A DNA stretch of 44,346 nt from a virus, in UHGV virus genome UHGV-0027446, one strand, 5' to 3'. The notes beneath the pieces were generated by a model. The model did not search any database and was not told the DNA's origin. It saw nothing but the letters and a program-made list of their open reading frames with translations. Shown here one piece after another: positions 300 through 35,366 of this stretch. Positions within the stretch are counted from its first letter, which is position 1, and the number at the start of each line of letters is the position of its first letter. The position numbers and the translations under genes were made by a program.

Positions 300-2839
300 T
301 CATCCACTACACCCGCAACGAAGACGGGACGTTCTCACAAAAACGGCATAACGACTCGCCGCTGAATTTCGTCGTAAACCATATCCCTGACGGTGTGCCG
401 TTTCGCGTTTTTCTCGAAGAGATAGGGGAGGATAACGACGTAACAGAAGATTTTGACGCATTAAAACAGGATGCTGTTTTTCACGTCCTGGAAGGTGCTG
501 GTGGCGGCGCTATAAAGGGTGTGATGAAAGTGTTCAGCATAATCCTTAAACCGCTGGCTAAATTACTCACACCGTCAACAAAGGGTGCGTCTAATAATCT
601 CGCTAACCAGCAAGCGGACTCGCCGAATAACAGTCTGACGGACCGAAATAACAAGGCCCGACCATATGAGCGAACTTATGACATCTGCGGCCGGGTGCAG
701 ACAATACCCAACAACCTTATGACAACTTATAAGGTTTTCGATAACGCGGGCCGCATCATTGAGTACGGCTACTATGATGCCGGGCGCGGGTATCTGGACG
801 TTAAAGCGGAAGACATCACCGACGGAGACACCAAAGTCCAGGAGATAACCGGAACTTCTGTAGCGGTGTACGCCCCGTACACGTCACCCAATAACACAAG
901 CTCTCCGCAACTTCTTGTTGGCGAACCTATCGACCAAAAGTTGTATATCACCATAGCATCTAATGAAGTAGACGGTGCGGTACTGAAAGCTCAAAACGGC
1001 ATAAGAGTAAACCCAAGCGATACCGGTGAGATATCGCTGCAAGGGACAACGGGTATTGTACGTGATGCAACCGGAGATTCCGCGTTTACAGAAATTCTGT
1101 CAGTTGGCGATGTGGCCGTTTTCAATCTCATTCTGGTAAAAGATGTCGCTAACGTAAGCGGTAATTATACGGTCACTTACGTCGATGATTTCGAGGTTAG
1201 AGTCGCTGTAGGTGGTATGCTCACCGAATGGCAGAAGTTGCCATCTGGTTTCACACGGATGACACAGGGTAACGAGGCGTGGATTTCACCCTCAAACACA
1301 TATGATAAATCATTAACCGACTGGACAACGCTTAACCGTCTGCCAGTAGAGCGCATCGTTGCAAATATTGCCGCCGCTAATGGCATGTATAAAGACAATG
1401 GCAGTAAACTAAGGGCCTCTGTCACCGTCGAGTTGCAGTATCAGTTACTCGATACCACCGGAACACCTTACGGGCCTGTATATAGTAAGCAAGGCGCCAT
1501 CTCAGGGCGGTCGTCAGATTACACCGGCGTAACAATCTATGCTGACCTGCCGTCGGCGTCTAACGTTCGTGTAAGGGCGCGCAGGGTGACAAACCTGGAC
1601 CTTGCTTTCGAAGGTACAGTAGTGGACGAGGTTTCTTACATAAACCTGTACGGGCAAATACGCGACACCACACCTAACTACGGAAACAGAACCACCGTAC
1701 ATTCAGCACGTAAACAGACACCCCGGGCCGCAGAGGTTAAACAGCCACAATTGCGAATGGTAGTAACTGAGATGGTGTACAAGTACCTCGGTAACGGTGT
1801 TTTTGACTCCGTAAGAACGCCAAACACGCAAGCGGTACAGTCGCTGATTCGTCTTGCCCGTGACCCTGATGTCGGCGCGTTGAATCTGACAACGGCAAAT
1901 ATGGATAAACTGTTAGCGGTACAGAGCGAAATTGAGGGCTATTTCGGTAGCGCATCCGCAGGAGAGTTTTGCTACACGTTTGATGACTATAAAACTACGA
2001 TGCAGGACATAGTAACTACGATAGCGGAAGCAATTTTCTGCACTCCATATCGTAGAGGCGCGGATGTTCTTCTGGACTTTGAGCGCCCGCGAATTGGTCC
2101 CGAGATGGTATTTACCCACCGCAGCAAAACCACCGCTACGGAGAAGTGGACACGCACGTTTAACGATGCCCAGGTATACGATAGCCTTAAGTTTTCATAC
2201 ATCGACCCGGATACTAACGTCAAAGAGACAATCAGCATCCCGGCCGAGGGCGGGGTTAATACTGAAACGTACGACTCTAAAGGTATCCGTAATTATCGAC
2301 AGGCGTACTGGGCCGCATATCGTCGATATCAGAAAAACCTGTTGAAGAAGGTGACAGTATCGTTCACGGCGACAGAAGAAGGGATTTTTGCAATGCCTGG
2401 GCGGGCGGTAAGTGTGGTGAAAGGTTCACGTATAGCCCCGCAAGACGGTTATGTAATCGCCGTTAATGGTCTTACCCTGACTTTATCACAGCCCGTTACG
2501 TTTACCCCCGGTGATGACCACTCACTGATTCTTAAGAAGCGAGACGGGGGAGTTCAAAGTGTCGCCGTTGTGCCTGGAAGCCACGACCGTGAAGTGGTTA
2601 TGCTATCCGCGCCACAGGAGGCGATATACACGGGGAATAGCGCACTAAAAACTGAGTTTTCATTCGGCAACGAAGCAAGGCATAATGCTCAGATGATTCT
2701 TGTTTCTACAGTTGACCCTGGAGACGACAGAACGGTTAAGATTACCGGGATTAAATATGAAGCAGATTTCTATAAATACGACGGCGTCGCGCCATACGGC
2801 AGCGGTTTCTCCGACGGATTCAGCAACGGTTTTAGTTAA
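290..2839 (+). CDS. tail tip / host-specificity protein (gpJ-like central fibre)
   Basis: 849-codon ORF after minor tail genes and before tailspike; TTG start preceded by AGGAG at about -9; Gly-rich hydrophobic N-terminal segment. Confidence 0.5.
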   Translation: MAIVIHYTRNEDGTFSQKRHNDSPLNFVVNHIPDGVPFRVFLEEIGEDNDVTEDFDALKQDAVFHVLEGAGGGAIKGVMKVFSIILKPLAKLLTPSTKGASNNLANQQADSPNNSLTDRNNKARPYERTYDICGRVQTIPNNLMTTYKVFDNAGRIIEYGYYDAGRGYLDVKAEDITDGDTKVQEITGTSVAVYAPYTSPNNTSSPQLLVGEPIDQKLYITIASNEVDGAVLKAQNGIRVNPSDTGEISLQGTTGIVRDATGDSAFTEILSVGDVAVFNLILVKDVANVSGNYTVTYVDDFEVRVAVGGMLTEWQKLPSGFTRMTQGNEAWISPSNTYDKSLTDWTTLNRLPVERIVANIAAANGMYKDNGSKLRASVTVELQYQLLDTTGTPYGPVYSKQGAISGRSSDYTGVTIYADLPSASNVRVRARRVTNLDLAFEGTVVDEVSYINLYGQIRDTTPNYGNRTTVHSARKQTPRAAEVKQPQLRMVVTEMVYKYLGNGVFDSVRTPNTQAVQSLIRLARDPDVGALNLTTANMDKLLAVQSEIEGYFGSASAGEFCYTFDDYKTTMQDIVTTIAEAIFCTPYRRGADVLLDFERPRIGPEMVFTHRSKTTATEKWTRTFNDAQVYDSLKFSYIDPDTNVKETISIPAEGGVNTETYDSKGIRNYRQAYWAAYRRYQKNLLKKVTVSFTATEEGIFAMPGRAVSVVKGSRIAPQDGYVIAVNGLTLTLSQPVTFTPGDDHSLILKKRDGGVQSVAVVPGSHDREVVMLSAPQEAIYTGNSALKTEFSFGNEARHNAQMILVSTVDPGDDRTVKITGIKYEADFYKYDGVAPYGSGFSDGFSNGFS

Positions 2840-4870: not shown

Positions 4871-4887
4871 TTAAAAAAAATAAAACT

Positions 4888-5561: not shown

Positions 5562-6982
5562 TTCTTACCTCGTCTCTTCATGTAATTAAGCAACTCTTCC
5601 TGTACCGATTTCTTCTCGTCTGTGCGCGCGGCAACAACCTCATCCAGCGTGTCTTTAGCAACGATGTGGTACAGGAACACAGGGCGCTCGTGGCCTGCCT
5701 GTTTCTGGCGAACTGGGCCTATGCGCTCGACAACCTGCAAATAGTGCTCAAGGTTCCAGCCTTGCGAAATAAACGCCAGATGATGCCCGCCGTCCTGTAA
5801 ATTCAAACCATGACCGGCTGACGCAGGGTGCACGCATAAGATTTCGATTTCGCCACGGTTCCACGCTTCCATCTGTTTATTACCCTTCGCGCCTTTGGCA
5901 AACGCCTGTGCCTGCGGGAACCGCTTAAGGATGCGCTCCAGTTCGTGCTTGAACTGATAGGCCACCAGTAACGGCGCGCCCTGTAACTCCTCAACAATCG
6001 ACTCGAGCGCATCCAGTTTCGTGTCATGCACTTTCTCCCAGTCTTTGGTTGCTTCTCCGTCTGGCCCTGACACGTATACAGCGCCGGATGCAATCTGTAA
6101 ACACTTAGACGTTTTCGCTGCGGCGTTAGCCGCTTCGACTTCTCCGCTTTCAAGTTCCGCAAATAGCTTCTCCTCCATATCGATGTACGCCTGTCGCGCT
6201 TTCTTCGGCAGGTTGATTTCAACCGGTACAATAATCGGCGCTTCACAACCAAACCACTCGGCAGCGTCAATCGTGAGACTGATGTCCTTCATCTTCTGGT
6301 GAATTTCATTATCCGCACCAGGGCGGGCGTGGTATTCGCGCGCCATAGCCGACTTACCTTTCTGCACCGAGTTAAACCAGCGGTCGGTGAATGCCGTGTA
6401 TGAAGACCCGAGGCGCTCGCCGGCGTCGATAAACCAGTTCTGCCCCCACAAGTCCTTGAGGCCGTTCGGTGACGGTGTCCCTGTAAGGTTTATCAGCCGC
6501 TTAACATTTCTAAATGCTACTTTACTAAGCGCCTTTGCCCTCTTGCTCCCGCCAGAACGGCTACGGAATGATTTCAACTTCGTGCTTTCATCATTAACTA
6601 TCACGGTAAAAGGCCAGTCGTCTACGCCGTAATAGTCGATAAGCCACTCTATAACCTCATAGTTAATACAAATTACATTAGCGTCAGACTCCAGCGCCGC
6701 GATGCGGCGCTTCTCTGAACCGGTTGCATCGACGACACGCAGACACGGGAAACCCCACTTAGTTTGTTCTGCTGGCCATGTACCAGACGCAACGCGCAAC
6801 GGGGCGAGAATTAACACGCGGTCGTCGTCCGTAAGCTGCCCGTTGCGGAACAGGCGGTTTAAAGCCCACAGTACGCTGCCAGTCTTCCCGGCGCCCATGC
6901 TCGCCCAAATATTACAGCGATTGTGCCGCAACATGAACGAGGTCATGAGCTTCTGGTACTCGCGCCTTTGAAACTTACTCAT
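5558..6982 (-). CDS. SF2 (SNF2/DEAD-like) DNA helicase
   Basis: Walker A GAGKTG, DExx-like IVNDEST, C-terminal helicase domain motifs; in replication operon. Confidence 0.75.
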   Translation of the reverse strand: MSKFQRREYQKLMTSFMLRHNRCNIWASMGAGKTGSVLWALNRLFRNGQLTDDDRVLILAPLRVASGTWPAEQTKWGFPCLRVVDATGSEKRRIAALESDANVICINYEVIEWLIDYYGVDDWPFTVIVNDESTKLKSFRSRSGGSKRAKALSKVAFRNVKRLINLTGTPSPNGLKDLWGQNWFIDAGERLGSSYTAFTDRWFNSVQKGKSAMAREYHARPGADNEIHQKMKDISLTIDAAEWFGCEAPIIVPVEINLPKKARQAYIDMEEKLFAELESGEVEAANAAAKTSKCLQIASGAVYVSGPDGEATKDWEKVHDTKLDALESIVEELQGAPLLVAYQFKHELERILKRFPQAQAFAKGAKGNKQMEAWNRGEIEILCVHPASAGHGLNLQDGGHHLAFISQGWNLEHYLQVVERIGPVRQKQAGHERPVFLYHIVAKDTLDEVVAARTDEKKSVQEELLNYMKRRGKK

Positions 6983-7170
6983 TTCGCCACCAGAACTAAC
7001 TCTTTACGCCCGAACGCCGTAACGTTACCAGTTACATCTTCGATAACCAGTTTACCGTTCGACTCGACGTACACTGTATCAACGGCAACAGGGCGACGGG
7101 TCTTAACGTTGAAAATCATGTCGCCAGGTACGATGTCGCGGGCTGGTTTGCGGTCATATTCGTGTTTCAT
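6979..7170 (-). CDS. hypothetical protein
   Basis: 63-codon ORF translationally coupled (ATGA) to helicase; preceded by promoter 7204..7232. Confidence 0.4.
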   Translation of the reverse strand: MKHEYDRKPARDIVPGDMIFNVKTRRPVAVDTVYVESNGKLVIEDVTGNVTAFGRKELVLVAK

Positions 7171-7200: not shown

Positions 7201-7485
7201 TTAACTATAATAGTTCGCTATTAGGTCGTCAACCTGTTTAAACGAACCAACGACAAAAACATTTGCACCACGTTTACGCATACGCTCGTGCTCTCGTAGC
7301 TGGTGCGGGTCAGGCTTCGTGTTTTCGTCTTTCTTAACCTCGACGAACCAGATGATGCCGCCGGGGAGGATTACCAACAGGTCGGGGGCGCCTCCTCTAT
7401 TTTCGTACGACAATTTGCGTACGAGGCCCCCCAGGGCCTCAAATCGGTCTTTTGCGTATTTCTGAACACGGCCCTCTTTAGTCAT
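7201..7485 (-). CDS. VRR-NUC domain nuclease
   Basis: PDLLVILPGGIIWFVEVKK PD-(D/E)XK-type core; probable start at internal ATG (MTKEGRV), track ORF starts at TTG 7500. Confidence 0.6.
   Translation of the reverse strand: MTKEGRVQKYAKDRFEALGGLVRKLSYENRGGAPDLLVILPGGIIWFVEVKKDENTKPDPHQLREHERMRKRGANVFVVGSFKQVDDLIANYYS
7204..7232 (-). promoter_or_regulatory. sigma70-type promoter, family A (TTGACG-N17-TATAGT)
   Basis: Minus-strand reading TTGACG acctaatagcgaactat TATAGT; shares spacer motif with promoters at 11734 and 14400. Confidence 0.45.
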
Positions 7486-17973: not shown

Positions 17974-18002
17974 TTGACTTTTACTAAGAAATATGGTAAG
18001 CT
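17974..18002 (+). promoter_or_regulatory. extended -10 promoter of conserved element copy R1 (TTGACT-N14-TGgTAAGCT)
   Basis: Near-identical promoter at 31328..31356. Confidence 0.45.
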
Positions 18003-18005
18003 CAG

Positions 18006-18215
18006 CCTGAGCTTGTGAAGTATGAACAAGCGACCGCGGCGCGCGGCAGGCGAAACGAGCACGTGTAGCGTGTGGAGTGAGGCTCGCTAGCGCGTTTGGG
18101 AGGCCCAAAGTCTATTGTAATTCCAGCCTAAATATCTAAGTTACTGATTTGCCGTAGGTTTTATCCGCAAGCTCACTCACTCACTCTTGGTGCCTTCGGC
18201 ACCACGTTCGTTTCG
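18006..18215 (+). ncRNA. candidate conserved leader / small RNA, copy R1
   Basis: Begins at predicted TSS with 38 nt identical to 31360..31397, including hairpin GCTTGT-gaagtatga-ACAAGC; ends near GGTGCC-TTCG-GGCACC hairpin. Confidence 0.3.
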
Positions 18216-18280
18216 TTTCGCTCGCTATCCCCTTAAACAAAAGAATCACAACGGCAACGTAACCATTTTCGATGAATCTC

Positions 18281-18309
18281 TTGCACACCCCAACATAATA
18301 GGCTACTAT
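18281..18309 (+). promoter_or_regulatory. sigma70-type promoter, family B (TTGCAC-N17-TACTAT)
   Basis: TTGCAC accccaacataataggc TACTAT; near-identical copies at 31233 and 40095 (minus) and 19646 (plus). Confidence 0.5.
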
Positions 18310-21347: not shown

Positions 21348-21656
21348 TTGGATAAATTTACTGAAACAGTGACAGGCTGGCTTCTCGCTGCCGCTCTGGC
21401 TGGCGGGGTAATCGGGCTAAGGCAACATAAGTCCGTTATTTCTGGCCCCATCGACGGCTTCTGCTTTATTGCAACTGGCTTCACTTGCGCCGTGTTTGGT
21501 GCACCTCTTGCCGCTCAATGGTTCGGCATTACCGGCGAACGTGAAATAGCTGGCCTCGGATTTATCATTGCCATTCTCTGGATGCCCATCTATTCCCGCC
21601 TCTCCGGTATCGTCGCCGGAGAATACATCTCACGTCGAGGAGGCACAGATGACTGA
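21348..21656 (+). CDS. holin-like membrane protein (three predicted TM segments)
   Basis: TTG start 6 nt after GGAGGA; three hydrophobic segments; immediately upstream of endolysin. Confidence 0.5.
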   Translation: MDKFTETVTGWLLAAALAGGVIGLRQHKSVISGPIDGFCFIATGFTCAVFGAPLAAQWFGITGEREIAGLGFIIAILWMPIYSRLSGIVAGEYISRRGGTDD

Positions 21657-21921
21657 GTTATTCTGGTTCGGCGGTATGCTGGCAATCGGGGGCGCATCGC
21701 TGTTTAATGTATATCACCCCAGCGTTGACGACGGACTATTCGGTCGGGTGCTCTATATCCTGACTGCTATTGTTTGCGCCGCGGGGTGTATCCACCTGTT
21801 ACAGGGCAGCATGTCACCGACGCTGCCTGAGACATTAATCACATTAGTCGCGCTGCGCCAGATTCGCCAGGCGTGGCTGTCGTACGGAGGACATAAGCGT
21901 GTCTCGAAACATTTCAGATAA
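21649..21921 (+). CDS. second holin/antiholin-like membrane protein (two predicted TM segments)
   Basis: ATG after AGGAGG; MTELFWFGGMLAIGGASLF and YILTAIVCAAGCIHLL hydrophobic segments. Confidence 0.45.
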   Translation: MTELFWFGGMLAIGGASLFNVYHPSVDDGLFGRVLYILTAIVCAAGCIHLLQGSMSPTLPETLITLVALRQIRQAWLSYGGHKRVSKHFR

Positions 21922-22387
21922 TGGATTGCATTTTACCGCCGCGTTTGAAGGATTCCGCGGAACTGCGTACCGTGCTACGCCGAACGAGAAGTACCTGACG
22001 ATAGGCTACGGTCACTACGGTCCGGACGTAACCCCGGGCAAGACCATCACTCCGGGACAAGGACTCCTGTTACTAAACCGAGATATGGCTAAGGCGGTAT
22101 CCGCAGTTGATGCAGCAGCACACCATTCACTGACACAAGCCCAGTTCGATGCGGTGTGTGACCTGGTATTTAACGCGGGTGCTGGTGTAATTGCAGCTAC
22201 TACTGGCACAGGTAAGGCGCTGCGTTCCGGTGATATTGTAACTCTGCGGGCTAAGCTGGCGCTGTTCATCAACCAGAACGGCAAACCGTTACTTGGCCTG
22301 CGTCGTCGTACAGCCGGTCGTCTGGCGCTGTTCGACGGTAAACCGTGGCAGGAGGCTGAGGCTATTGGGCGCGCGGTGAAAGGTTGA
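21899..22387 (+). CDS. endolysin, phage lysozyme-like (T4-lysozyme/GH24-type)
   Basis: FEGFRGTAYRATPNEKYLTIGYGHY catalytic-region motif; GTG start after GGAGGA. Confidence 0.8.
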   Translation: MSRNISDNGLHFTAAFEGFRGTAYRATPNEKYLTIGYGHYGPDVTPGKTITPGQGLLLLNRDMAKAVSAVDAAAHHSLTQAQFDAVCDLVFNAGAGVIAATTGTGKALRSGDIVTLRAKLALFINQNGKPLLGLRRRTAGRLALFDGKPWQEAEAIGRAVKG

Positions 22388-22450
22388 CACCTAAGACTAA
22401 TCCGACGATACTTAAATCACCTCCTGTCCCATCCCTCTGCTCTCCAGTTT

Positions 22451-22483
22451 TATCCCGGCCCTGACCCAGCCGGGATTTTTTTT
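22451..22483 (+). terminator. rho-independent terminator
   Basis: ATCCCGGC-loop-GCCGGGAT followed by TTTTTTTTAT. Confidence 0.6.
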
Positions 22484-22505
22484 ATCTGTTTTCTGCAATG
22501 ACTAG

Positions 22506-22534
22506 TTGACTATTACCTGTGACCCTATTATATT
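22506..22534 (+). promoter_or_regulatory. sigma70-type promoter (TTGACT-N17-TATATT)
   Basis: Near-consensus -35, 17-nt spacer containing ccctattat as in family B. Confidence 0.55.
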
Positions 22535-22567
22535 TACTTCATCGACAACGAGAACGGAGTAGAGAAG

Positions 22568-22645
22568 ATGCGTAATTTTCATAACGAACATGTGATGCAG
22601 TTCTATCGCCATAATCTGAAAACTAAAGGAGTGTTTGGAAAATGA
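22568..22645 (+). CDS. small hypothetical peptide (25 aa)
   Basis: Hand-translated; GAGAAG SD; ATGA coupling to next ORF. Confidence 0.2.
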
Positions 22646-22791
22646 AAATCACAGATATCGAAGCATTCAAAGACGCGCAACTTATGGCGCGCATTGCGGT
22701 TAGTAACCTGAACAACAGCATTCCGGCGGATGCGTTCTTGTTCGCCGCGATGCAGACACTGAAAGCAGCTTATGCGGGAGAGAAGAAATGA
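22642..22791 (+). CDS. small hypothetical protein (49 aa)
   Basis: Hand-translated [26 protein letters not shown]...; AGGAG SD. Confidence 0.3.
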
Positions 22792-22946
22792 GCGAACAAG
22801 GTCAAGTAAGCCAACCATTACGAGTAGGCCGTAAAGTCAGTCACACCCCGTTTCCGACACGTGAAGAACTGATGAAACGTAACAGTTTCCCCGGGCCGGA
22901 CAAGAACAAGTATCTCAATCGCATGTGGGGAGCACGCAAAGTATGA
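22788..22946 (+). CDS. small hypothetical protein (52 aa)
   Basis: Hand-translated [22 protein letters not shown]...; ATGA coupled both sides. Confidence 0.3.
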   Translation: MSEQGQVSQPLRVGRKVSHTPFPTREELMKRNSFPGPDKNKYLNRMWGARKV

Positions 22947-23116
22947 CTAACAACGAATATGAGAAACTTAGCGTCGAATCCGCGACCGGTGAGTCTGAAA
23001 TAGCGTGGATTGATGCCCACATCGAGCACCACTTACGGCAGGTAGATAAACTTATGGAGCGTCGCCGTGAACTGATTAACCGCTTCAACCTGAACAAGGG
23101 TGACACCAATGCCTAA
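22943..23116 (+). CDS. hypothetical protein
   Basis: Internal ATG of track ORF 22925..23116, coupled to upstream ORF. Confidence 0.4.
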   Translation: MTNNEYEKLSVESATGESEIAWIDAHIEHHLRQVDKLMERRRELINRFNLNKGDTNA

Positions 23117-29356: not shown

Positions 29357-30400
29357 ATGAGCTTACTTACATCCCTAATCAGCCACCAGATATGGCTGCA
29401 ACGCACCGCATCCGGCGAAGTGAAAGACCTCGCACCGTTCATTAAGGAAATGCGGGACGAAATCAAACGGCAGGTGCTGCTATTCGGTGACGACGGTCGC
29501 AGCACTGCGCGGCTGAATAAACTGTTACACGACCTTGAAGAAGCACTAACCGGACTTACAGGTGACTGGCAAACAAAGCTAACAGAAGACCTTAAGGAAC
29601 TGGCGGCATATGAGGCTGAGTGGAACGTAAAGACACTGACGGCTAACGTTAACGCTGAATTTGTTACGCCTACCGCCGAACAGGTGTGGGCCGCTGCCGA
29701 GTTTCAGCCCTTATCGTTAAGCGACAAGCCCGTCGATTTCACTAAGCTGATGGATGGCTGGGGTGAAACAGAAGTATCGCGCCTGGTAACCGGCGTTAAG
29801 ATGGGTTTTGTGCAAGGCCAGACAACACGGCAGATTGTTAAGAATGTCGTAGGCGCTGGCGGACTGGCAGACATCTCTGAGCGCAACGCCGCTGCGGTAA
29901 TCCGCACCGCGCTGTCCCATGTATCCAACGAAGCTCGTAACGAGACGTACCGCCAGAACGACGACATCATCGAGAAATACGAATGGGTGTCAACTCTGGA
30001 CAGCCGTACCAGCACGATTTGCAGGGCCAGAGACGGAATGACGTGGGAAATTGGTAAAGGGCCGATGCCCCCCGCCCATCCGAATTGCCGGTCGTGCACG
30101 GCTCCGGTAATTAGTTCCGAGTTCGACTTCCTTGATAAAGGCGCAAAACGCGCGGCTAAGGGTGCAGATGGCGGTACTCAGGTAAGCGCAGACACAACCT
30201 ATTACGAGTTCCTTAAACAACAGCCAGCGTGGTTTCAGGACCAGGCGCTCGGCCCAGTTCGCGGTAAGATTTTCCGTAACAGCGGTATATCGCTGGAAGA
30301 GTTTCGCGTAATATCTGTAGATGGTTTCGGGAATCCGCTCACGCTTAAGCAGATGGCGGAACTCGATAAACGTGTTGCTGATTATCTGAAAGGGGAATAA
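29357..30400 (+). CDS. head morphogenesis protein (SPP1 gp7 / Mu F-like minor head protein)
   Basis: LDSRTSTICRARDGMTW...HPNCRSC signature; AGGAGGG SD before internal ATG of track ORF. Confidence 0.75.
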   Translation: MSLLTSLISHQIWLQRTASGEVKDLAPFIKEMRDEIKRQVLLFGDDGRSTARLNKLLHDLEEALTGLTGDWQTKLTEDLKELAAYEAEWNVKTLTANVNAEFVTPTAEQVWAAAEFQPLSLSDKPVDFTKLMDGWGETEVSRLVTGVKMGFVQGQTTRQIVKNVVGAGGLADISERNAAAVIRTALSHVSNEARNETYRQNDDIIEKYEWVSTLDSRTSTICRARDGMTWEIGKGPMPPAHPNCRSCTAPVISSEFDFLDKGAKRAAKGADGGTQVSADTTYYEFLKQQPAWFQDQALGPVRGKIFRNSGISLEEFRVISVDGFGNPLTLKQMAELDKRVADYLKGE

Positions 30401-30861
30401 TGATGGGCTTTTTCAAAGTAACTGACGTACCGTCGCGTCGCGTAGTCCAGTACGCCCGTGTGTCTGGCTCCGGTGAGAACGTGGTGTTTATTGAAGATGA
30501 AAGTGTGCTAGGTACACCGGTAGACGACATGCCGTTTGCTGACAAGACTGGTATTGCGCTCCCCGCGGCGGGTATGCTTTATGAGATTCCGTATCTGGCT
30601 GACGCTGGTGATGTGTATTTCTCTGTGCAACCGAAAGACACGGAACTGACAGACGGCAGCGCAACTATCGCTGTCGAGGTTAAGGCAGGCAAAGCGCCGT
30701 ATGTGCTGACCTGGTACAAAGACGGGAAGGAAGTGGTAAACGCGCCGGAAGAGGCTTTGTCTCTGACGGTTAACGCTGCAGGTGAATACTTCGTTAAAGT
30801 CACCGATGCCGATGGGGTAGAGGCAGTAAGCAAAGCGGCGAAGGTTACCAAGCCAGAATGA
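30400..30861 (+). CDS. hypothetical structural protein with Ig-like C-terminal segment
   Basis: YVLTWYKDGKEV...GEYFVKVTDADG resembles Ig-like fold motif. Confidence 0.4.
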   Translation: MMGFFKVTDVPSRRVVQYARVSGSGENVVFIEDESVLGTPVDDMPFADKTGIALPAAGMLYEIPYLADAGDVYFSVQPKDTELTDGSATIAVEVKAGKAPYVLTWYKDGKEVVNAPEEALSLTVNAAGEYFVKVTDADGVEAVSKAAKVTKPE

Positions 30862-30865
30862 TAAA

Positions 30866-30892
30866 AGGCCCCTTACGGGGCCTTAGTTTTAT
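30866..30892. terminator. bidirectional terminator (AAGGCCCC-TTAC-GGGGCCTT + T-run)
   Basis: Between convergent genes 30400..30861 and 30889..31203. Confidence 0.55.
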
Positions 30893-31203
30893 TTCTTTCC
30901 TAATGCTTTCTTGATTGCTCTGTCGGCCAGACTTAACGGATGGTCTTTATGGCAATTGTCAGAAGATACTACACAAACATCCTCAACGTAATCGCGAAGC
31001 TGGCGAAGAGCTTCAAGTAACTCTGGTGCCGAGGCGATAAGTTCGGCGTCGTGTTTATCATTAATTTCTTCTGCAACTGGAGTTCGGATAGTACAGCCGT
31101 ACATTTTCTTTAATGAGCCTTTCTGAAACACAAACCACTCCTGCTCGCCTTTTTCTTTCTTGAACTCCCACGGACCTTTCGTGCCTTTAAATTCATCTTT
31201 CAC
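30889..31203 (-). CDS. hypothetical protein (opposite-strand insertion)
   Basis: GTG start after GAGGAGGG SD, driven by family-B promoter; GPWEF...LIASAPELLEAL motif. Confidence 0.45.
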   Translation of the reverse strand: MKDEFKGTKGPWEFKKEKGEQEWFVFQKGSLKKMYGCTIRTPVAEEINDKHDAELIASAPELLEALRQLRDYVEDVCVVSSDNCHKDHPLSLADRAIKKALGKK

Positions 31204-31232: not shown

Positions 31233-31261
31233 ATAGTACCCTATTATGCTGGGGTGTGCAA
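31233..31261 (-). promoter_or_regulatory. sigma70-type promoter, family B (TTGCAC-N17-TACTAT)
   Basis: Minus-strand TTGCAC accccagcataataggg TACTAT. Confidence 0.5.
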
Positions 31262-31327
31262 ACTATTTATTAGCCTATTCCAGTTATTCCGCTCAATTGT
31301 AAATGTTGGAATAAACTATTCGAATAG

Positions 31328-31356
31328 TTGACTTTTCACTGAAAATATGCTAAGCT
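31328..31356 (+). promoter_or_regulatory. extended -10 promoter of conserved element copy R2 (TTGACT-N14-TGcTAAGCT)
   Basis: Same architecture as 17974..18002; -35 overlaps 16-bp palindrome AACTATTCGAATAGTT. Confidence 0.45.
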
Positions 31357-31359
31357 CCA

Positions 31360-31563
31360 CCTGAGCTTGTGAAGTATGAACAAGCGACCGCGGCGCGGGC
31401 AGGTAACGGAGCGGGACGTAAGTCCTGAGTGTAGTTACGCTGACGCGTTCGGAAGGGCCATACTCTATTGCTTGTGTAAAAAGTAACTGGTTTACTGAAA
31501 TTGCGCCGTTTCTATGTTTAAATGATAAGTACTAGCGCCCCGCTTTAAGGCGGGGCTTTACTT
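31360..31563 (+). ncRNA. candidate conserved leader / small RNA, copy R2 (upstream of spanin genes)
   Basis: 38 nt identical to R1 at predicted TSS, ~70% identity beyond; ends in GCCCCGC-TTTAAG-GCGGGGC hairpin + TTTACTT. Confidence 0.3.
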
Positions 31564-31580
31564 ATCGAGAAAGGAGAAAC

Positions 31581-31967
31581 ATGAATCTTAAAGCAGCAAT
31601 CATAACCACGGCATGTTCCGCGTTTCTCGTTTTCGCTTACGGGAAATACAACTATCTTCAAGGATGGAACGAAGGCCGGGAGAATCTCGTTTCGCAGCAA
31701 CAGCAGAAAGCACAAGCCGAGCTAGCGAAGAAAACACAACGGCAGCAGCAGGACGAATCAAAGGCCGCAGCCGCTGACATCGAAGGCAAGACGAAATCAG
31801 AGGTTATCACCCGTGAAGTCGTTAAGTACATTAAAACGCCTGGTCGCAGCGTATGCACTTTCGATGATGCTCGCGTCCTGCTCAAGTCCCGCGCCGTCGC
31901 AAACGCCAATTACATCCCCGGATACGACGATGATGCAGCCGCCGTGCAAACTGGCCGCACCAAGTAG
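31581..31967 (+). CDS. i-spanin (Rz-like)
   Basis: N-terminal TM segment, Q/K/A-rich coiled-coil region; AAGGAG SD; overlapping embedded lipoprotein gene. Confidence 0.6.
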   Translation: MNLKAAIITTACSAFLVFAYGKYNYLQGWNEGRENLVSQQQQKAQAELAKKTQRQQQDESKAAAADIEGKTKSEVITREVVKYIKTPGRSVCTFDDARVLLKSRAVANANYIPGYDDDAAAVQTGRTK

Positions 31968-32076
31968 CGACGCTGACGAGGATTTAGCTATTGACGTTCG
32001 GAACGCCGAATGCGTACGGCAACTGAGACTGAAAGTGTTCATGTTGCAGGATTACGTGAGGAATATTCTGGAATAG
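31813..32076 (+). CDS. o-spanin (Rz1-like outer-membrane lipoprotein), overlapping Rz in another frame
   Basis: Signal peptide with lipobox LASC, Pro-rich mature region; starts inside Rz gene and extends past its stop. Confidence 0.55.
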   Translation: MKSLSTLKRLVAAYALSMMLASCSSPAPSQTPITSPDTTMMQPPCKLAAPSSDADEDLAIDVRNAECVRQLRLKVFMLQDYVRNILE

Positions 32077-32158
32077 TTGCCTTGCATGTTGGAATAATTT
32101 ATTCTTGACATGTAAATCCGGGTGGCCCGGATTCCAACGTCCAGGGGACATACTGACT

Positions 32159-32863
32159 ATGAATCGTTTTTTACGCTATCCGTTCCAGGAAGAAGCTGGG
32201 GCAGAAGATAAATCCGGCGGCGGTGACGCTCCGAAAATGTTCACCGCTGAAGAAGTTCAGGCACTGATTGAGAAAGAAGTTGCCGGGCTTAAGGCTAATC
32301 AGGAAGCATTGCTGGCGGAGAAGAAAGAAGCCGCCCGTAAAGCAAAAGAGGCCGAAGAAGAACGGCAGCGCGCGCACCAGGAGGCGTTAAAAGCCGCTGG
32401 TAAGATGGACGAGTTCGAAAAGACGATCCGTAGCCAGTATGACCCGGTGTTGGCCGAGAAAGATGGACGCATCTCCAGAATGGCAGAGCGCATCCTTGGC
32501 AGCGAACGTAAAGCGGTGTTAGGCTCTTTCGCGGGCGACTTTATCACCCCGGAGGCAGTAGACATTCTCGCACCGTTCGTTAAGACTGAGTTCGAAGGCG
32601 ATGACGTGGTTACTAAATTTGTTGGCGCAGATGGCAACGTAATCACGACTGACCCGGAACAGTTCCGCAAATACCTGCGTGAACACAAAGCGTTTTCGCA
32701 TTTGATTAAAGCAAATGCAGCTTCCGGCGGCGGGGCTCCCGGTAGCAAAGGCGGCGGGGCCGCACCAGCGTTTAAAGACATGAGTGAAGCGGAGCGTATT
32801 GCTCTGTACGAATCGAACCCTGCCGAATTTGAACGGCAACTTAAAGCCCTGAGGAAAAAATAA
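32159..32863 (+). CDS. putative scaffolding protein
   Basis: Directly upstream of major capsid gene; Ala/Glu/Lys-rich predicted coiled coil. Confidence 0.5.
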   Translation: MNRFLRYPFQEEAGAEDKSGGGDAPKMFTAEEVQALIEKEVAGLKANQEALLAEKKEAARKAKEAEEERQRAHQEALKAAGKMDEFEKTIRSQYDPVLAEKDGRISRMAERILGSERKAVLGSFAGDFITPEAVDILAPFVKTEFEGDDVVTKFVGADGNVITTDPEQFRKYLREHKAFSHLIKANAASGGGAPGSKGGGAAPAFKDMSEAERIALYESNPAEFERQLKALRKK

Positions 32864-33912
32864 TGGCAATTACTACTATTGGCGATATCGTAACTGGTAA
32901 AGAATCGGTAATCCTGTCTTACATGACAGAGGATCCGGTAGAAAAAACCGCGTTTTTCCAGTCCGGTATTCTGACCCCAACTCCGTACGCCGCCGCTATC
33001 GCAAACGGCCCGTCCAACAAAGCTGTTCTGCCGTACTGGAAAGCGATTGATACCTCTATCGAGCCGAACTACTCGAACGACGTATATCAGGACGTCGCCA
33101 CCCCGCGTAACGTGCAGACCGGTGAGATGGATGTTCGCGTAGCTTACCTGAACGAAGGTTTTGGTCAGGCGGATTTGACTGTCGAACTGACCAGCCAGAA
33201 TCCGCTGCAATCCGTAGCGTCCCGTCTGGATAACTTCTGGCAACGTCAGGCACAACGCCGTCTGATTGCTACCGCGCTCGGTCTGTACAACGACAACGTA
33301 GCCGCTACCGATGCTTACCACGAGCAGAACGACATGGTTGTAGACGTGTCCGCCACTCTAGGCTTCGACTCCGGCGCGTTCATCGATGCTACTCAGACTA
33401 TGGGTGATGCGCTGATGGGCAACGGCGGTGAAGTTCTCGGTGCTATCGCGATGCACAGCTTCGTTTATGCGCAGGCTCGTAAGCAGCAGCTTATTGACTT
33501 CATCCGTGACGCTGACAACAACACCATGTTCGCCACCTACCAGGGCTACCGTGTGATTGTTGACGACAGCATGACCGTAGTTGGCTCCGGCTCGAGCCGC
33601 AAGTTCATTTCCATCATCTTCGGCAACGGCGCTATCGGTTACGGTGAAGGCAACCCAACCAATCCGCTGGCATACGAGCGCGAAGAGTCCCGCGGCAACG
33701 GCGGCGGTGCAGAAACACTGTGGACCCGTAAGACCTGGCTGCTGCATCCGTTGGGCTACAGCTTCACCAGCGCAGTAATCACCGGCAACGGCACCGAGAC
33801 TGTCGCCCGCTCTGCTTCCTGGCAGGACCTGGCGAATGCCTCAAACTGGAACCGTGTTGTTGAGCGTAAGCATGTACCGATTGCCTTCCTGGTAACTGGT
33901 GTCGGGGCTTAA
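32863..33912 (+). CDS. major capsid protein
   Basis: 349-codon ORF after scaffold gene, ATG overlapping previous stop, followed by strong terminator. Confidence 0.75.
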   Translation: MAITTIGDIVTGKESVILSYMTEDPVEKTAFFQSGILTPTPYAAAIANGPSNKAVLPYWKAIDTSIEPNYSNDVYQDVATPRNVQTGEMDVRVAYLNEGFGQADLTVELTSQNPLQSVASRLDNFWQRQAQRRLIATALGLYNDNVAATDAYHEQNDMVVDVSATLGFDSGAFIDATQTMGDALMGNGGEVLGAIAMHSFVYAQARKQQLIDFIRDADNNTMFATYQGYRVIVDDSMTVVGSGSSRKFISIIFGNGAIGYGEGNPTNPLAYEREESRGNGGGAETLWTRKTWLLHPLGYSFTSAVITGNGTETVARSASWQDLANASNWNRVVERKHVPIAFLVTGVGA

Positions 33913-33928
33913 GGTTAAGCTATAATCG

Positions 33929-33956
33929 AGAGGGACTTCGGTCCCTCTTTTCATTT
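33929..33956 (+). terminator. rho-independent terminator
   Basis: AGAGGGAC-TTCG-GTCCCTCT followed by TTTCATTT. Confidence 0.5.
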
Positions 33957-34670: not shown

Positions 34671-34850
34671 ATGGCCGATAATTATGTAATCCGCGAAAAG
34701 TACACCCACGTTGATATTGTTGACGGTCAGGTGATGCCAGTTCGCGGTGTGGTAGGGGCTGATGAACTGGTTGCGACTCAACCGGACAACGAAGAAGCGC
34801 ACAACAACGGCGGTGGTGCTAAGCGTCGTCGCCGTAAATCAGAGGAATAA
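34671..34850 (+). CDS. small hypothetical protein (59 aa)
   Basis: Hand-translated MADNYVIREKYTHVDIVDGQ...; AGGAAAGG SD; just below track cutoff. Confidence 0.3.
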   Translation: MADNYVIREKYTHVDIVDGQVMPVRGVVGADELVATQPDNEEAHNNGGGAKRRRRKSEE

Positions 34851-34853
34851 TTT

Positions 34854-35366
34854 ATGCCGCTAATCGTGGAAGATGGGTCGATAGTACCCAACGCCGACAG
34901 TTACATTAGTCTGGCTGACGCCCGCGCGTTAGCGGCTAATTATGGCCTTGAGCTACCGGAAGACGATATCGCTGCCGAAGTTGCCTTACGTAACGGTGCC
35001 ACTTATGTCGGGCTGGCAGAACCGCAGATGTGTGGTCGTCGCGTATCCGCTGAACAGTCTCTCGCTTACCCACGCGCTGGCGTAACGTTGAATGGCTTCC
35101 CTGTAGCTAACAATGCCATTCCGAAACAGGTAATTCTTGCGCAGGTAATCGCGTCCGCCACGTACGGGGCGGGCACAGAAGTGCGTGCTAACTCGGACGG
35201 TCGCTCCGTGCAGACTGAGCGCGTGGAAGGTGCAGTTACCGTGACATACTTCAACAACGGCAACAGTGGGGCTACAACTGCGATTACCGCCGCTGACGAC
35301 GCCTTACGCCCGTTACTGTGTGGCGGTCTCAACAATGGCTTCTCGTTTAACGTGTACCGGGGTTAA
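34854..35366 (+). CDS. putative head-tail connector/adaptor protein
   Basis: Position between head and tail genes; assignment by synteny only. Confidence 0.35.
   Translation: MPLIVEDGSIVPNADSYISLADARALAANYGLELPEDDIAAEVALRNGATYVGLAEPQMCGRRVSAEQSLAYPRAGVTLNGFPVANNAIPKQVILAQVIASATYGAGTEVRANSDGRSVQTERVEGAVTVTYFNNGNSGATTAITAADDALRPLLCGGLNNGFSFNVYRG

Follow-up and report, generated by a model that had tools for sequence, protein, structure and literature searches.

Introduction

In the lambda Rz/Rz1 paradigm, spanins are harmless until the cell wall has gone, and they therefore need not be encoded beside the holin and endolysin or precisely co-timed with them. Here we examine a putative spanin pair at positions 31581..32076 of the 44,346-nucleotide (nt) viral genome UHGV-0027446, in which an Rz-like gene (i-spanin) is overlapped by an Rz1-like gene (o-spanin). 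The whole stretch of DNA analysed is called the window throughout.

Overlapped spanin genes have been described before. The overlapped 'Jersey' family of Kongari et al (2018; PMC6139136) includes Jersey, SETP3, K1G, K1H, K1ind1-3 and HK578. The Jersey spanin genes overlap by 155 bp, and two o-spanin cysteines, Cys45 and Cys67, are constant in the family; the FSL_SP-031 variant, with an overlap of 8 bp, was classed as 'separated' (Kongari et al, 2018). The same study places the T4 spanins away from the T4 holin and endolysin. A physical split also emerges from two genome papers: in Golestan the spanins are ORF7/8 and the holins and endolysin ORF66-68 (ORF, open reading frame), and in SeF1 the corresponding products are Gp_009/010 and Gp_063-065. 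Because of these three papers, both the overlapped architecture and the split must be regarded as already documented for this group of phages.

The region of the window is 92-93% identical in DNA sequence to the Kagunavirus genomes LM08P2, RP180, Schulenburg and Golestan (Guernseyvirinae), and on this similarity the window is a Kagunavirus. We put the probability that the two ORFs constitute the two-component spanin of this Kagunavirus, of the Jersey overlapped family, at about 90%. Judged by homology, both the family of the pair and its genomic position have been described already, and in this respect there is nothing new about it.

Results

An Rz-like gene for a predicted inner-membrane protein

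The upstream gene of the pair (31581..31967, + strand) starts with ATG and encodes 128 amino acids. When compared with the PHROG profiles, its product matched phrog_2536, 'Rz-like spanin', at 4.6e-52. Hydropathy was calculated in windows of 17 residues with a threshold of 1.5; windows above the threshold start only at residues 1-5, giving a hydrophobic stretch of residues 1-21 and none elsewhere. The protein thus has a single transmembrane helix, which is N-terminal and spans about residues 4-21. A single-sequence AlphaFold2 (AF2) model consists of one long helix over residues 3-81, with a predicted local distance difference test (pLDDT) score of 74-90 up to residue 60. The only periplasmic cysteine is C92. 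These features mark the product as a predicted type-II inner-membrane protein, whose sole transmembrane helix is N-terminal and whose periplasmic domain is mainly helical.

For comparison we used 52 related loci, drawn from GenBank phages and IMG/VR. Among them, 42 distinct sequences encode a full-length, 128-residue Rz, and the conservation counts below refer to these 42. The i-spanin shares 82-84% amino acid identity with Kagunavirus spanins and 62-64% with Jerseyvirus spanins (by tblastn, 82% with K1ind1 and 61-64% with SETP3, Ent3 and Shelanagig). Its membrane-helix allele (MNLKAAIITTACSAFLVFAYG...) is a rarer variant, the best matches being 93% in IMG/VR and 83.6% among GenBank phages. 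Spanin alleles are mosaic in these phages. The membrane-helix allele of the window recurs in two contigs (L022 and L055) together with a Jerseyvirus-type o-spanin, and at a third locus (L050) a Kagunavirus-type i-spanin N-terminus is joined to a St162-type, near-separated 3' half.

An internal start for an Rz1-like lipoprotein precursor

The second gene (31813..32076, + strand) begins with GTG at offset +232 of the i-spanin gene, in the +1 frame relative to it, and encodes an o-spanin (Rz1-like) lipoprotein precursor of 87 amino acids. The N-terminus of this protein, MKSLSTLKRLVAAYALSMMLAS-C23-SSPAPSQTPITSPD, has a basic start and an uncharged core, followed by the lipobox L-A-S-C (codons 20-23; 31870..31881, + strand), in which Cys23 is the predicted lipidation site. 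Under a rule of the PROSITE PS51257 type, in our own coding (K/R among residues 1-7, no charge in the h-region, and a lipobox), the protein scores as a lipoprotein, as do the proteins of 37 of the 42 relatives; the remaining 5 carry LNGC. The lipobox variants found among the relatives are LASC, LSAC, LSGC, LNGC, LTAC and ITGC, so that the signal peptide varies while the cysteine is always kept. Since the residue at +2 after Cys23 is Ser and not Asp, sorting to the outer membrane is predicted. Cleavage at Cys23 would leave a mature protein of 65 residues, of which the C-terminal 35 are conserved. The o-spanin contains 7 prolines, mostly in the mature N-terminal part, and has cysteines at positions 23, 45 and 67. 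These lipoprotein features agree with the first-pass annotation of this DNA, which had described a proline-rich, Rz1-like lipoprotein with the lipobox LASC and had named lipobox prediction as a check: a signal of the signal peptidase II type is present.

The internal start is preceded, at a distance of 9 nt, by the Shine-Dalgarno sequence GAGG (31800..31803, + strand). This core occurs in all six of the commonest upstream 16-mers, which together represent 34 of the 42 distinct relatives, and the codon at +232 is GTG in 40/42 and ATG in 2/42. When every ORF and every start codon was scanned, no other credible lipoprotein ORF was found in the 44-kb window; the remaining matches to the lipobox pattern have no hydrophobic core and belong to ORFs that lie out of frame or antisense within larger genes. 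Outside its signal region the o-spanin has no hydrophobic window above 1.5, and it is therefore not a unimolecular spanin of the T1 gp11 type, which combines an N-terminal lipobox with a C-terminal transmembrane helix.

The Schulenburg record annotates a much shorter o-spanin of 48 amino acids (6882..7028, equivalent to window positions 31930..32076), which has neither signal peptide nor lipobox. We therefore considered whether the only product might be this form, initiated at the internal ATG at 31930 (MMQPPCK...), with the upstream part of the +1 ORF untranslated. Apart from the annotation itself, such a model could draw on PHROG 5672, whose 47 positions match only the C-terminal part of the o-spanin (8.8e-30 over residues 41-87), and on the use of GTG rather than ATG at 31813. 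However, all 42 relatives keep the 39 upstream codons open, and these always specify a basic N-terminus followed by a hydrophobic core and by a cysteine in lipobox context; the GAGG 9 nt upstream is conserved as well. Some Jerseyviruses have ATG at +232, and a second PHROG profile of an 'Rz-like spanin' family, phrog_1267, aligns with residues 8-86 (5e-18). Moreover, the laboratory that annotated Schulenburg annotates the 87-residue form in Shelanagig; this record and that of K1ind1 in GenBank (where it is an 'overlapping gene') give the same 128- and 87-residue models. A 48-residue product could not reach the outer membrane, because it would lack both the signal peptide and the lipobox. We regard the short form as very improbable: conservation of the open frame favours the GTG-initiated gene of 87 codons as the correct model, and so do the lipobox and the Shine-Dalgarno sequence.

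Two reading frames in the overlap

The two genes share 155 nt (31813..31967, + strand), a dual-coding segment that would specify the C-terminal 51 codons of the i-spanin and, in the other frame, the signal peptide and proline-rich linker of the o-spanin. The o-spanin gene then continues for 109 nt beyond the Rz stop. The first-pass annotation had the lipoprotein gene starting inside the Rz-like gene in a different frame and running about 110 nt past its stop, and had called the architecture overlapped and not embedded; the coordinates (31581..31967 and 31813..32076) and the family match to the Jersey overlapped spanins confirm both statements.

By our own estimate, which is not the result of a tool, an open frame of about 51 codons would arise inside another gene by chance with a probability of roughly 0.09, and the +1 ORF might accordingly be a chance open frame that has no product. 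The distribution of variability, measured as entropy per codon position (nucleotides) or per residue (amino acids), speaks against this. In the part that encodes only Rz, the third position of the Rz frame is the most variable (0.618 versus 0.291 and 0.229), and within the 155-nt overlap the Rz-frame wobble position still leads (0.497 versus 0.303 and 0.277). Across the 109-nt extension, variability is instead highest at the third position of the +1 frame (0.592 versus 0.198 and 0.085). This switch of the most variable codon phase after the Rz stop argues for two coding frames. The 87-codon +1 ORF is, moreover, intact in 42/42 distinct relatives. At the protein level, the segments encoded by the overlap have the same entropy in both products (0.48 for Rz residues 78-128 and 0.48 for o-spanin residues 24-52); the highest value is that of the o-spanin signal peptide (0.86), and o-spanin residues 53-87 are strongly conserved (0.18). 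Together with the conserved lipobox cysteine, the PHROG matches and the prophage homologues described below, these data make a chance open frame a negligible explanation.

Distance from the holins and endolysin

The first gene of the lysis cassette encodes a holin/antiholin with three hydrophobic segments (21348..21656, + strand; phrog_2359, 3.8e-29), the Schulenburg homologue of which is annotated antiholin/holin class II. A second holin/antiholin gene (21649..21921, + strand) matches phrog_2508 (1.5e-32 over residues 28-117 of ORF 21568..21921) and likely starts at the ATG at 21649, inside that ORF; the two holin genes then overlap by 8 nt, as they do in Schulenburg. They are followed by the gene for a soluble, lysozyme-type endolysin of 162 amino acids (21899..22387, + strand; phrog_7, 2.2e-39; phrog_33703, 6.3e-47). 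No N-terminal hydrophobic segment is visible in its sequence, and the Schulenburg homologue is annotated as a P22-like endolysin. Indeed, the layout of the whole cassette is the same in Schulenburg.

From the endolysin stop to the Rz start there are 9194 nt, so that holins, endolysin and spanins do not form a contiguous cassette. No spanin-like ORF follows the endolysin (22387..23100 inspected), and no second or unimolecular spanin was found beside it or across the whole window. Earlier claims that the lysis functions are divided between two places, with the cassette at 21348..22387, and that the spanin pair lies inside the head region, here between the Hoc-like and the scaffold and capsid genes, were thus correct.

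The location of the pair among head genes, 9 kb from the holins and endolysin, would also suit a non-lysis envelope function within the head module, for example that of a superinfection-exclusion lipoprotein with its membrane partner. Exclusion is, for instance, the role of the phage lipoproteins T5 Llp and Cor. As independent evidence, a lambdoid prophage of Klebsiella, ST13-OXA48phi12.5 (MK714353.1), is the most useful here. It encodes homologues of both the i-spanin (37% amino acid identity, E 1e-23) and the o-spanin (48%, E 4e-21), and these are also overlapped (125-nt overlap, 118-nt extension). Unlike the pair in the window, they occupy the canonical position, in the order Q (antiterminator) - holin - lysozyme - spanins. 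Since they directly follow a holin and a lysozyme, the same overlapped pair does occur in a canonical lysis cassette elsewhere, which argues against a function in exclusion. In addition, a single-helix membrane protein combined with an overlapping small lipoprotein is the diagnostic signature of a spanin; phages of Gram-negative hosts generally need one, and the window holds no other candidate. Nor is distance from the holin and endolysin exceptional, since the spanins of T4 are likewise unlinked from theirs. We consider a non-lysis function improbable and retain the two-component spanin as our reading of the pair.

Two further observations concern these relatives. In the Klebsiella prophage the o-spanin ORF (1709..1951 of the fetched locus; 80 amino acids, lipobox LCSC) is unannotated, and the 'Rz1 lytic protein' of the record lies elsewhere. 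Dhillonvirus HK578 has a more distant overlapped pair, with the lipobox LSAC, directly after the head-morphogenesis gene.

Genomic neighbourhood and predicted transcription unit

Upstream of the spanin pair lie a Hoc-like decoration gene (30400..30861) and, between this and the spanins, an accessory gene of 104 amino acids on the - strand (30889..31203; phrog_1273, function not assigned). The accessory gene is present in only 3/52 related loci; Schulenburg has a different reverse gene at this place, annotated as a sliding clamp. Downstream, the scaffold gene (32159..32863, + strand; phrog_206, 5.5e-54) is followed by the major capsid gene (32863..33912, + strand; phrog_247, 2.7e-117). Wherever Hoc, Rz, Rz1 and scaffold all fall inside the fetched locus, they keep this order; the full arrangement head-morphogenesis > Hoc > Rz > Rz1 > scaffold is seen in 48 of 52 loci, and the remaining 4 are cut short or have no detectable flanking match.

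A promoter-like site with an extended -10 element, TTGACT-N17-TGcTAAGCT, is recognisable in the sequence at 31328..31356 (+ strand). It is kept in Kagunavirus relatives, and a second copy begins at 17974. A simple promoter scanner omits the site because its -10 hexamer ends in CT and not AT. The terminator scan revealed no + strand terminator-like site between 31581 and 33912, and the first strong terminator (33928..33949, + strand) comes after the capsid gene. We predict from this arrangement a transcription unit composed of leader, Rz/Rz1, scaffold and capsid, and therefore that the spanins would be expressed late, together with the head proteins.

A perfect hairpin without a U-run, AATCCGGG-TGG-CCCGGATT, lies at 32116..32134, in the 82-nt spacer that separates the o-spanin stop from the scaffold ATG; GenBank K1ind1 starts the scaffold gene at a TTG upstream of the hairpin. 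The palindrome GGAATAnnnTATTC occurs in the same spacer (32091..32104) and also just upstream of the -35 element that precedes the R2 leader described below (31308..31321), and a copy with one mismatch (34844..34857) is found at the start of ORF 34854. The palindrome has 7 strand-hits where 0.59 would be expected, confined to 3-4 places, and a phage regulator may use it as an operator. The 12-mer ATGTTGGAATAA, which contains it, was also considered as a repeat in its own right and was set aside, its two copies not exceeding the number expected by chance.

Other repeated elements are spread across the window. A second promoter-like family, TTGCAC-N17-TACTAT(TCA), is found at 18281 and 19646 (+ strand) and at 31261 and 40123 (- strand), and also at 7203, 11733 and 14399. 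Its members are embedded in the repeat families that we numbered D5, D10 and D16, and one of them faces the reverse gene 30889..31203; they are probably the other sigma-70 promoters of the phage. Near-identical, bidirectional terminator hairpins, AAGGCCCC-NNNN-GGGGCCTT, mark module boundaries at 4882, 11003, 27840, 30857 and 38446.

A structured leader RNA upstream of the spanin genes

The promoter-like site and the first ~120 nt of the leader that follows it are duplicated at 17974..18130, each copy coming after a promoter of the form TTGACT-N17-TGnTAAGCT. With their whole leaders, the two elements cover 31328..31566 and 17974..18230. We built a covariance model of the shared core, called R, from 22 relatives. 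It matched the copy upstream of the spanins, R2 (31361..31483, + strand), with 142.6 bits and the other copy, R1 (18007..18130, + strand), with 103.9 bits; these are the only two copies in the window, the next match scoring 10.6 bits. R2 stands at the head of the spanin-scaffold-capsid unit, and R1 heads a rightward block of small genes that leads to the holins and endolysin.

The core opens with a 5' hairpin; a long-range helix (CCG.GGYGC paired to GCRUU.CGG) then encloses an apical hairpin, and the invariant AAGGGCC...CUAUUG comes next. In the long-range helix a C-G pair is exchanged for U-A, with an 11:11 split among the sequences, and in the apical hairpin the sequence changes while the pairing is kept. 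The consensus structure is paired in 96.1% of cells, compared with 84.8% in shuffles, none of 500 being as high. The covariation score, drawn from both Kagunavirus and Jerseyvirus, is 0.352 against 0.151, and every slid control is lower. Searched against Rfam, the window gave no match at gathering scores, and around the leader only noise at E up to 10. That R is a conserved structured RNA is thus well supported by comparative sequence analysis. A gapped motif scan of IMG/VR returned matches almost only in contigs of 40-46 kb of the Guernseyvirinae type. With the covariance model, Jerseyvirus Shelanagig was found to have R only before the spanins, and the spanin regions fetched from Tsm2, St162 and HK578 (~3.1-3.4 kb each) gave no match.

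Within the R2 leader, an ORF of 36 amino acids (31376..31486) was considered as a leader peptide. This is unlikely: in R1 a 1-nt indel and an early stop interrupt it, yet the nucleotides are conserved, and covarying base pairs explain this conservation, so that the ORF is probably not a gene. Schulenburg carries it as a hypothetical protein; the ORF that Shelanagig has annotated in this leader is not the same one and has its own start.

The leader extends for roughly 200 nt from the promoter to a bipartite hairpin just before the Rz ribosome-binding site (31524..31566, + strand), with a lower stem of 31524-31531 paired to 31559-31566 and an upper GC stem at 31537-31556. The GC hairpin (31537..31556) has 8 pairs and the tail TTTACTTATC, passes the simple terminator scan and ends 24 nt before the Rz ATG. 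Its U-run is interrupted and pairs with the upstream, A-rich segment 31524-31531. The bipartite fold has a predicted energy of -24 kcal/mol (z -4.8). The equivalent hairpin of Jerseyviruses has different stem sequences and the same shape, indicating compensatory change (-20.9 kcal/mol, z -3.8). No convincing alternative antiterminator pairing was found by inspection. Since the U-rich tail pairs with 31524..31531, the hairpin may weakly terminate transcription, be cut by RNase III or stabilise the RNA. The first-pass annotation had placed the spanin pair directly behind an 'R2 leader/attenuator'. The position holds, in that the pair is the first coding unit after the promoter, leader and hairpin; the label 'attenuator' is not established, given the interrupted U-run and its pairing upstream. 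Just before the corresponding R1 hairpin there is a run of the tetranucleotide CTCA (CTCACTCACTCACTC, 18172..18186), the copy number of which varies between related phages.

One may imagine that the R leader controls the spanin-scaffold-capsid unit, either in cis on RNA polymerase as a put-like, processive antiterminator or as a factor-controlled attenuator, and that it would thereby time the late genes and, in Kagunaviruses, couple the two separate halves of the lysis system. We think this unlikely as it stands, and both the mechanism of R and the coupling are speculation. Co-regulation of both lysis halves by R was considered separately and is weakened by the further promoters and the strong terminator that lie between R1 and the holins, and also because Jerseyviruses carry R only before the spanins. 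The put RNAs of HK022 are two related, promoter-proximal copies, each with two stem-loops, and the antitermination that they cause persists over 10 kb (PMC9378689). R resembles them in having two sequence-related copies per genome, each located after a promoter, formed of stem-loops and heading a long operon with internal terminators. It differs from put in its longer core (~120 nt) and in its single copy in Jerseyviruses, and the likeness is one of position and copy number. We treat it as a possible functional analogy and only as a lead.

Discussion

The results presented above suggest a model in which the window encodes a conventional two-component spanin at a distance from the holins and endolysin. 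The o-spanin would be read from the internal GTG in the +1 frame and made as a lipoprotein precursor with a signal peptidase II lipobox, LAS-C23. If the pair follows lambda Rz/Rz1, the C-terminal parts of the two proteins would bind each other across the periplasm, and the complexes would be held inactive by the intact peptidoglycan mesh. Once the distant holins had triggered and the endolysin had degraded the wall, the complexes would fuse the inner and outer membranes and so complete lysis.

Several points weigh against this assignment. It depends on architecture, on homology and on one canonical genomic context. We met no experiment on Jersey-family spanins in the literature on these phages, in which no search was aimed at one. 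Neither protein matches the lambda-type Rz or Rz1 families of Pfam (E up to 0.1), and the match to NCBIfam NF038368, P2_Rz1 (P2 LysC), is below threshold (17.6 bits against a cutoff of 27; E 0.0032). The AF2 model of the i-spanin is of low confidence in its C-terminal half. Finally, the transcription unit is a predicted one, and the hairpin before Rz may end part of the transcripts.

The locus matters mainly for correct annotation: it holds a standard Jersey-type pair for which the 87-residue o-spanin model is right, and some database entries carry the 48-residue form. It also adds one more case, as in T4, of spanin genes outside the lysis cassette, which fits the idea that spanins stay inactive for as long as the peptidoglycan is present. 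Potential for discovery lies only in the conserved, structured leader upstream, which has no Rfam family or described function.

With regard to known systems, the pair is closest to the Jersey family, with which it shares 62-84% amino acid identity, the 155-bp overlap, the 128- and 87-residue models, Cys45 and Cys67 and the position between the Hoc-like and scaffold genes; from other members it differs by allele only. The spanins of the FSL_SP-031/St162 type of Guernseyvirinae are homologous proteins at the same locus, but their genes overlap by only 8-14 nt ('separated'), the i-spanin has 118-119 residues and the o-spanin has another signal peptide. Among our loci, St162 and one IMG/VR contig carry this near-separated variant. 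The T4 spanins, pseT.3/pseT.2, in contrast, have 'separated' genes and come from a sequence family unrelated to this one. With lambda Rz/Rz1 the pair has in common a predicted type-II inner-membrane protein and, read from the same DNA in the +1 frame, a small, proline-rich, presumptive lipoprotein of the outer membrane. However, lambda Rz1 is wholly embedded in Rz, whereas the Rz1 of the window extends 109 nt past the Rz stop, and the lambda genes directly follow S and R, whereas the window spanins lie 9.2 kb from the holins and endolysin. The predicted mature o-spanin is also longer than that of lambda, at 65 residues, and ends in a conserved C-terminal segment.

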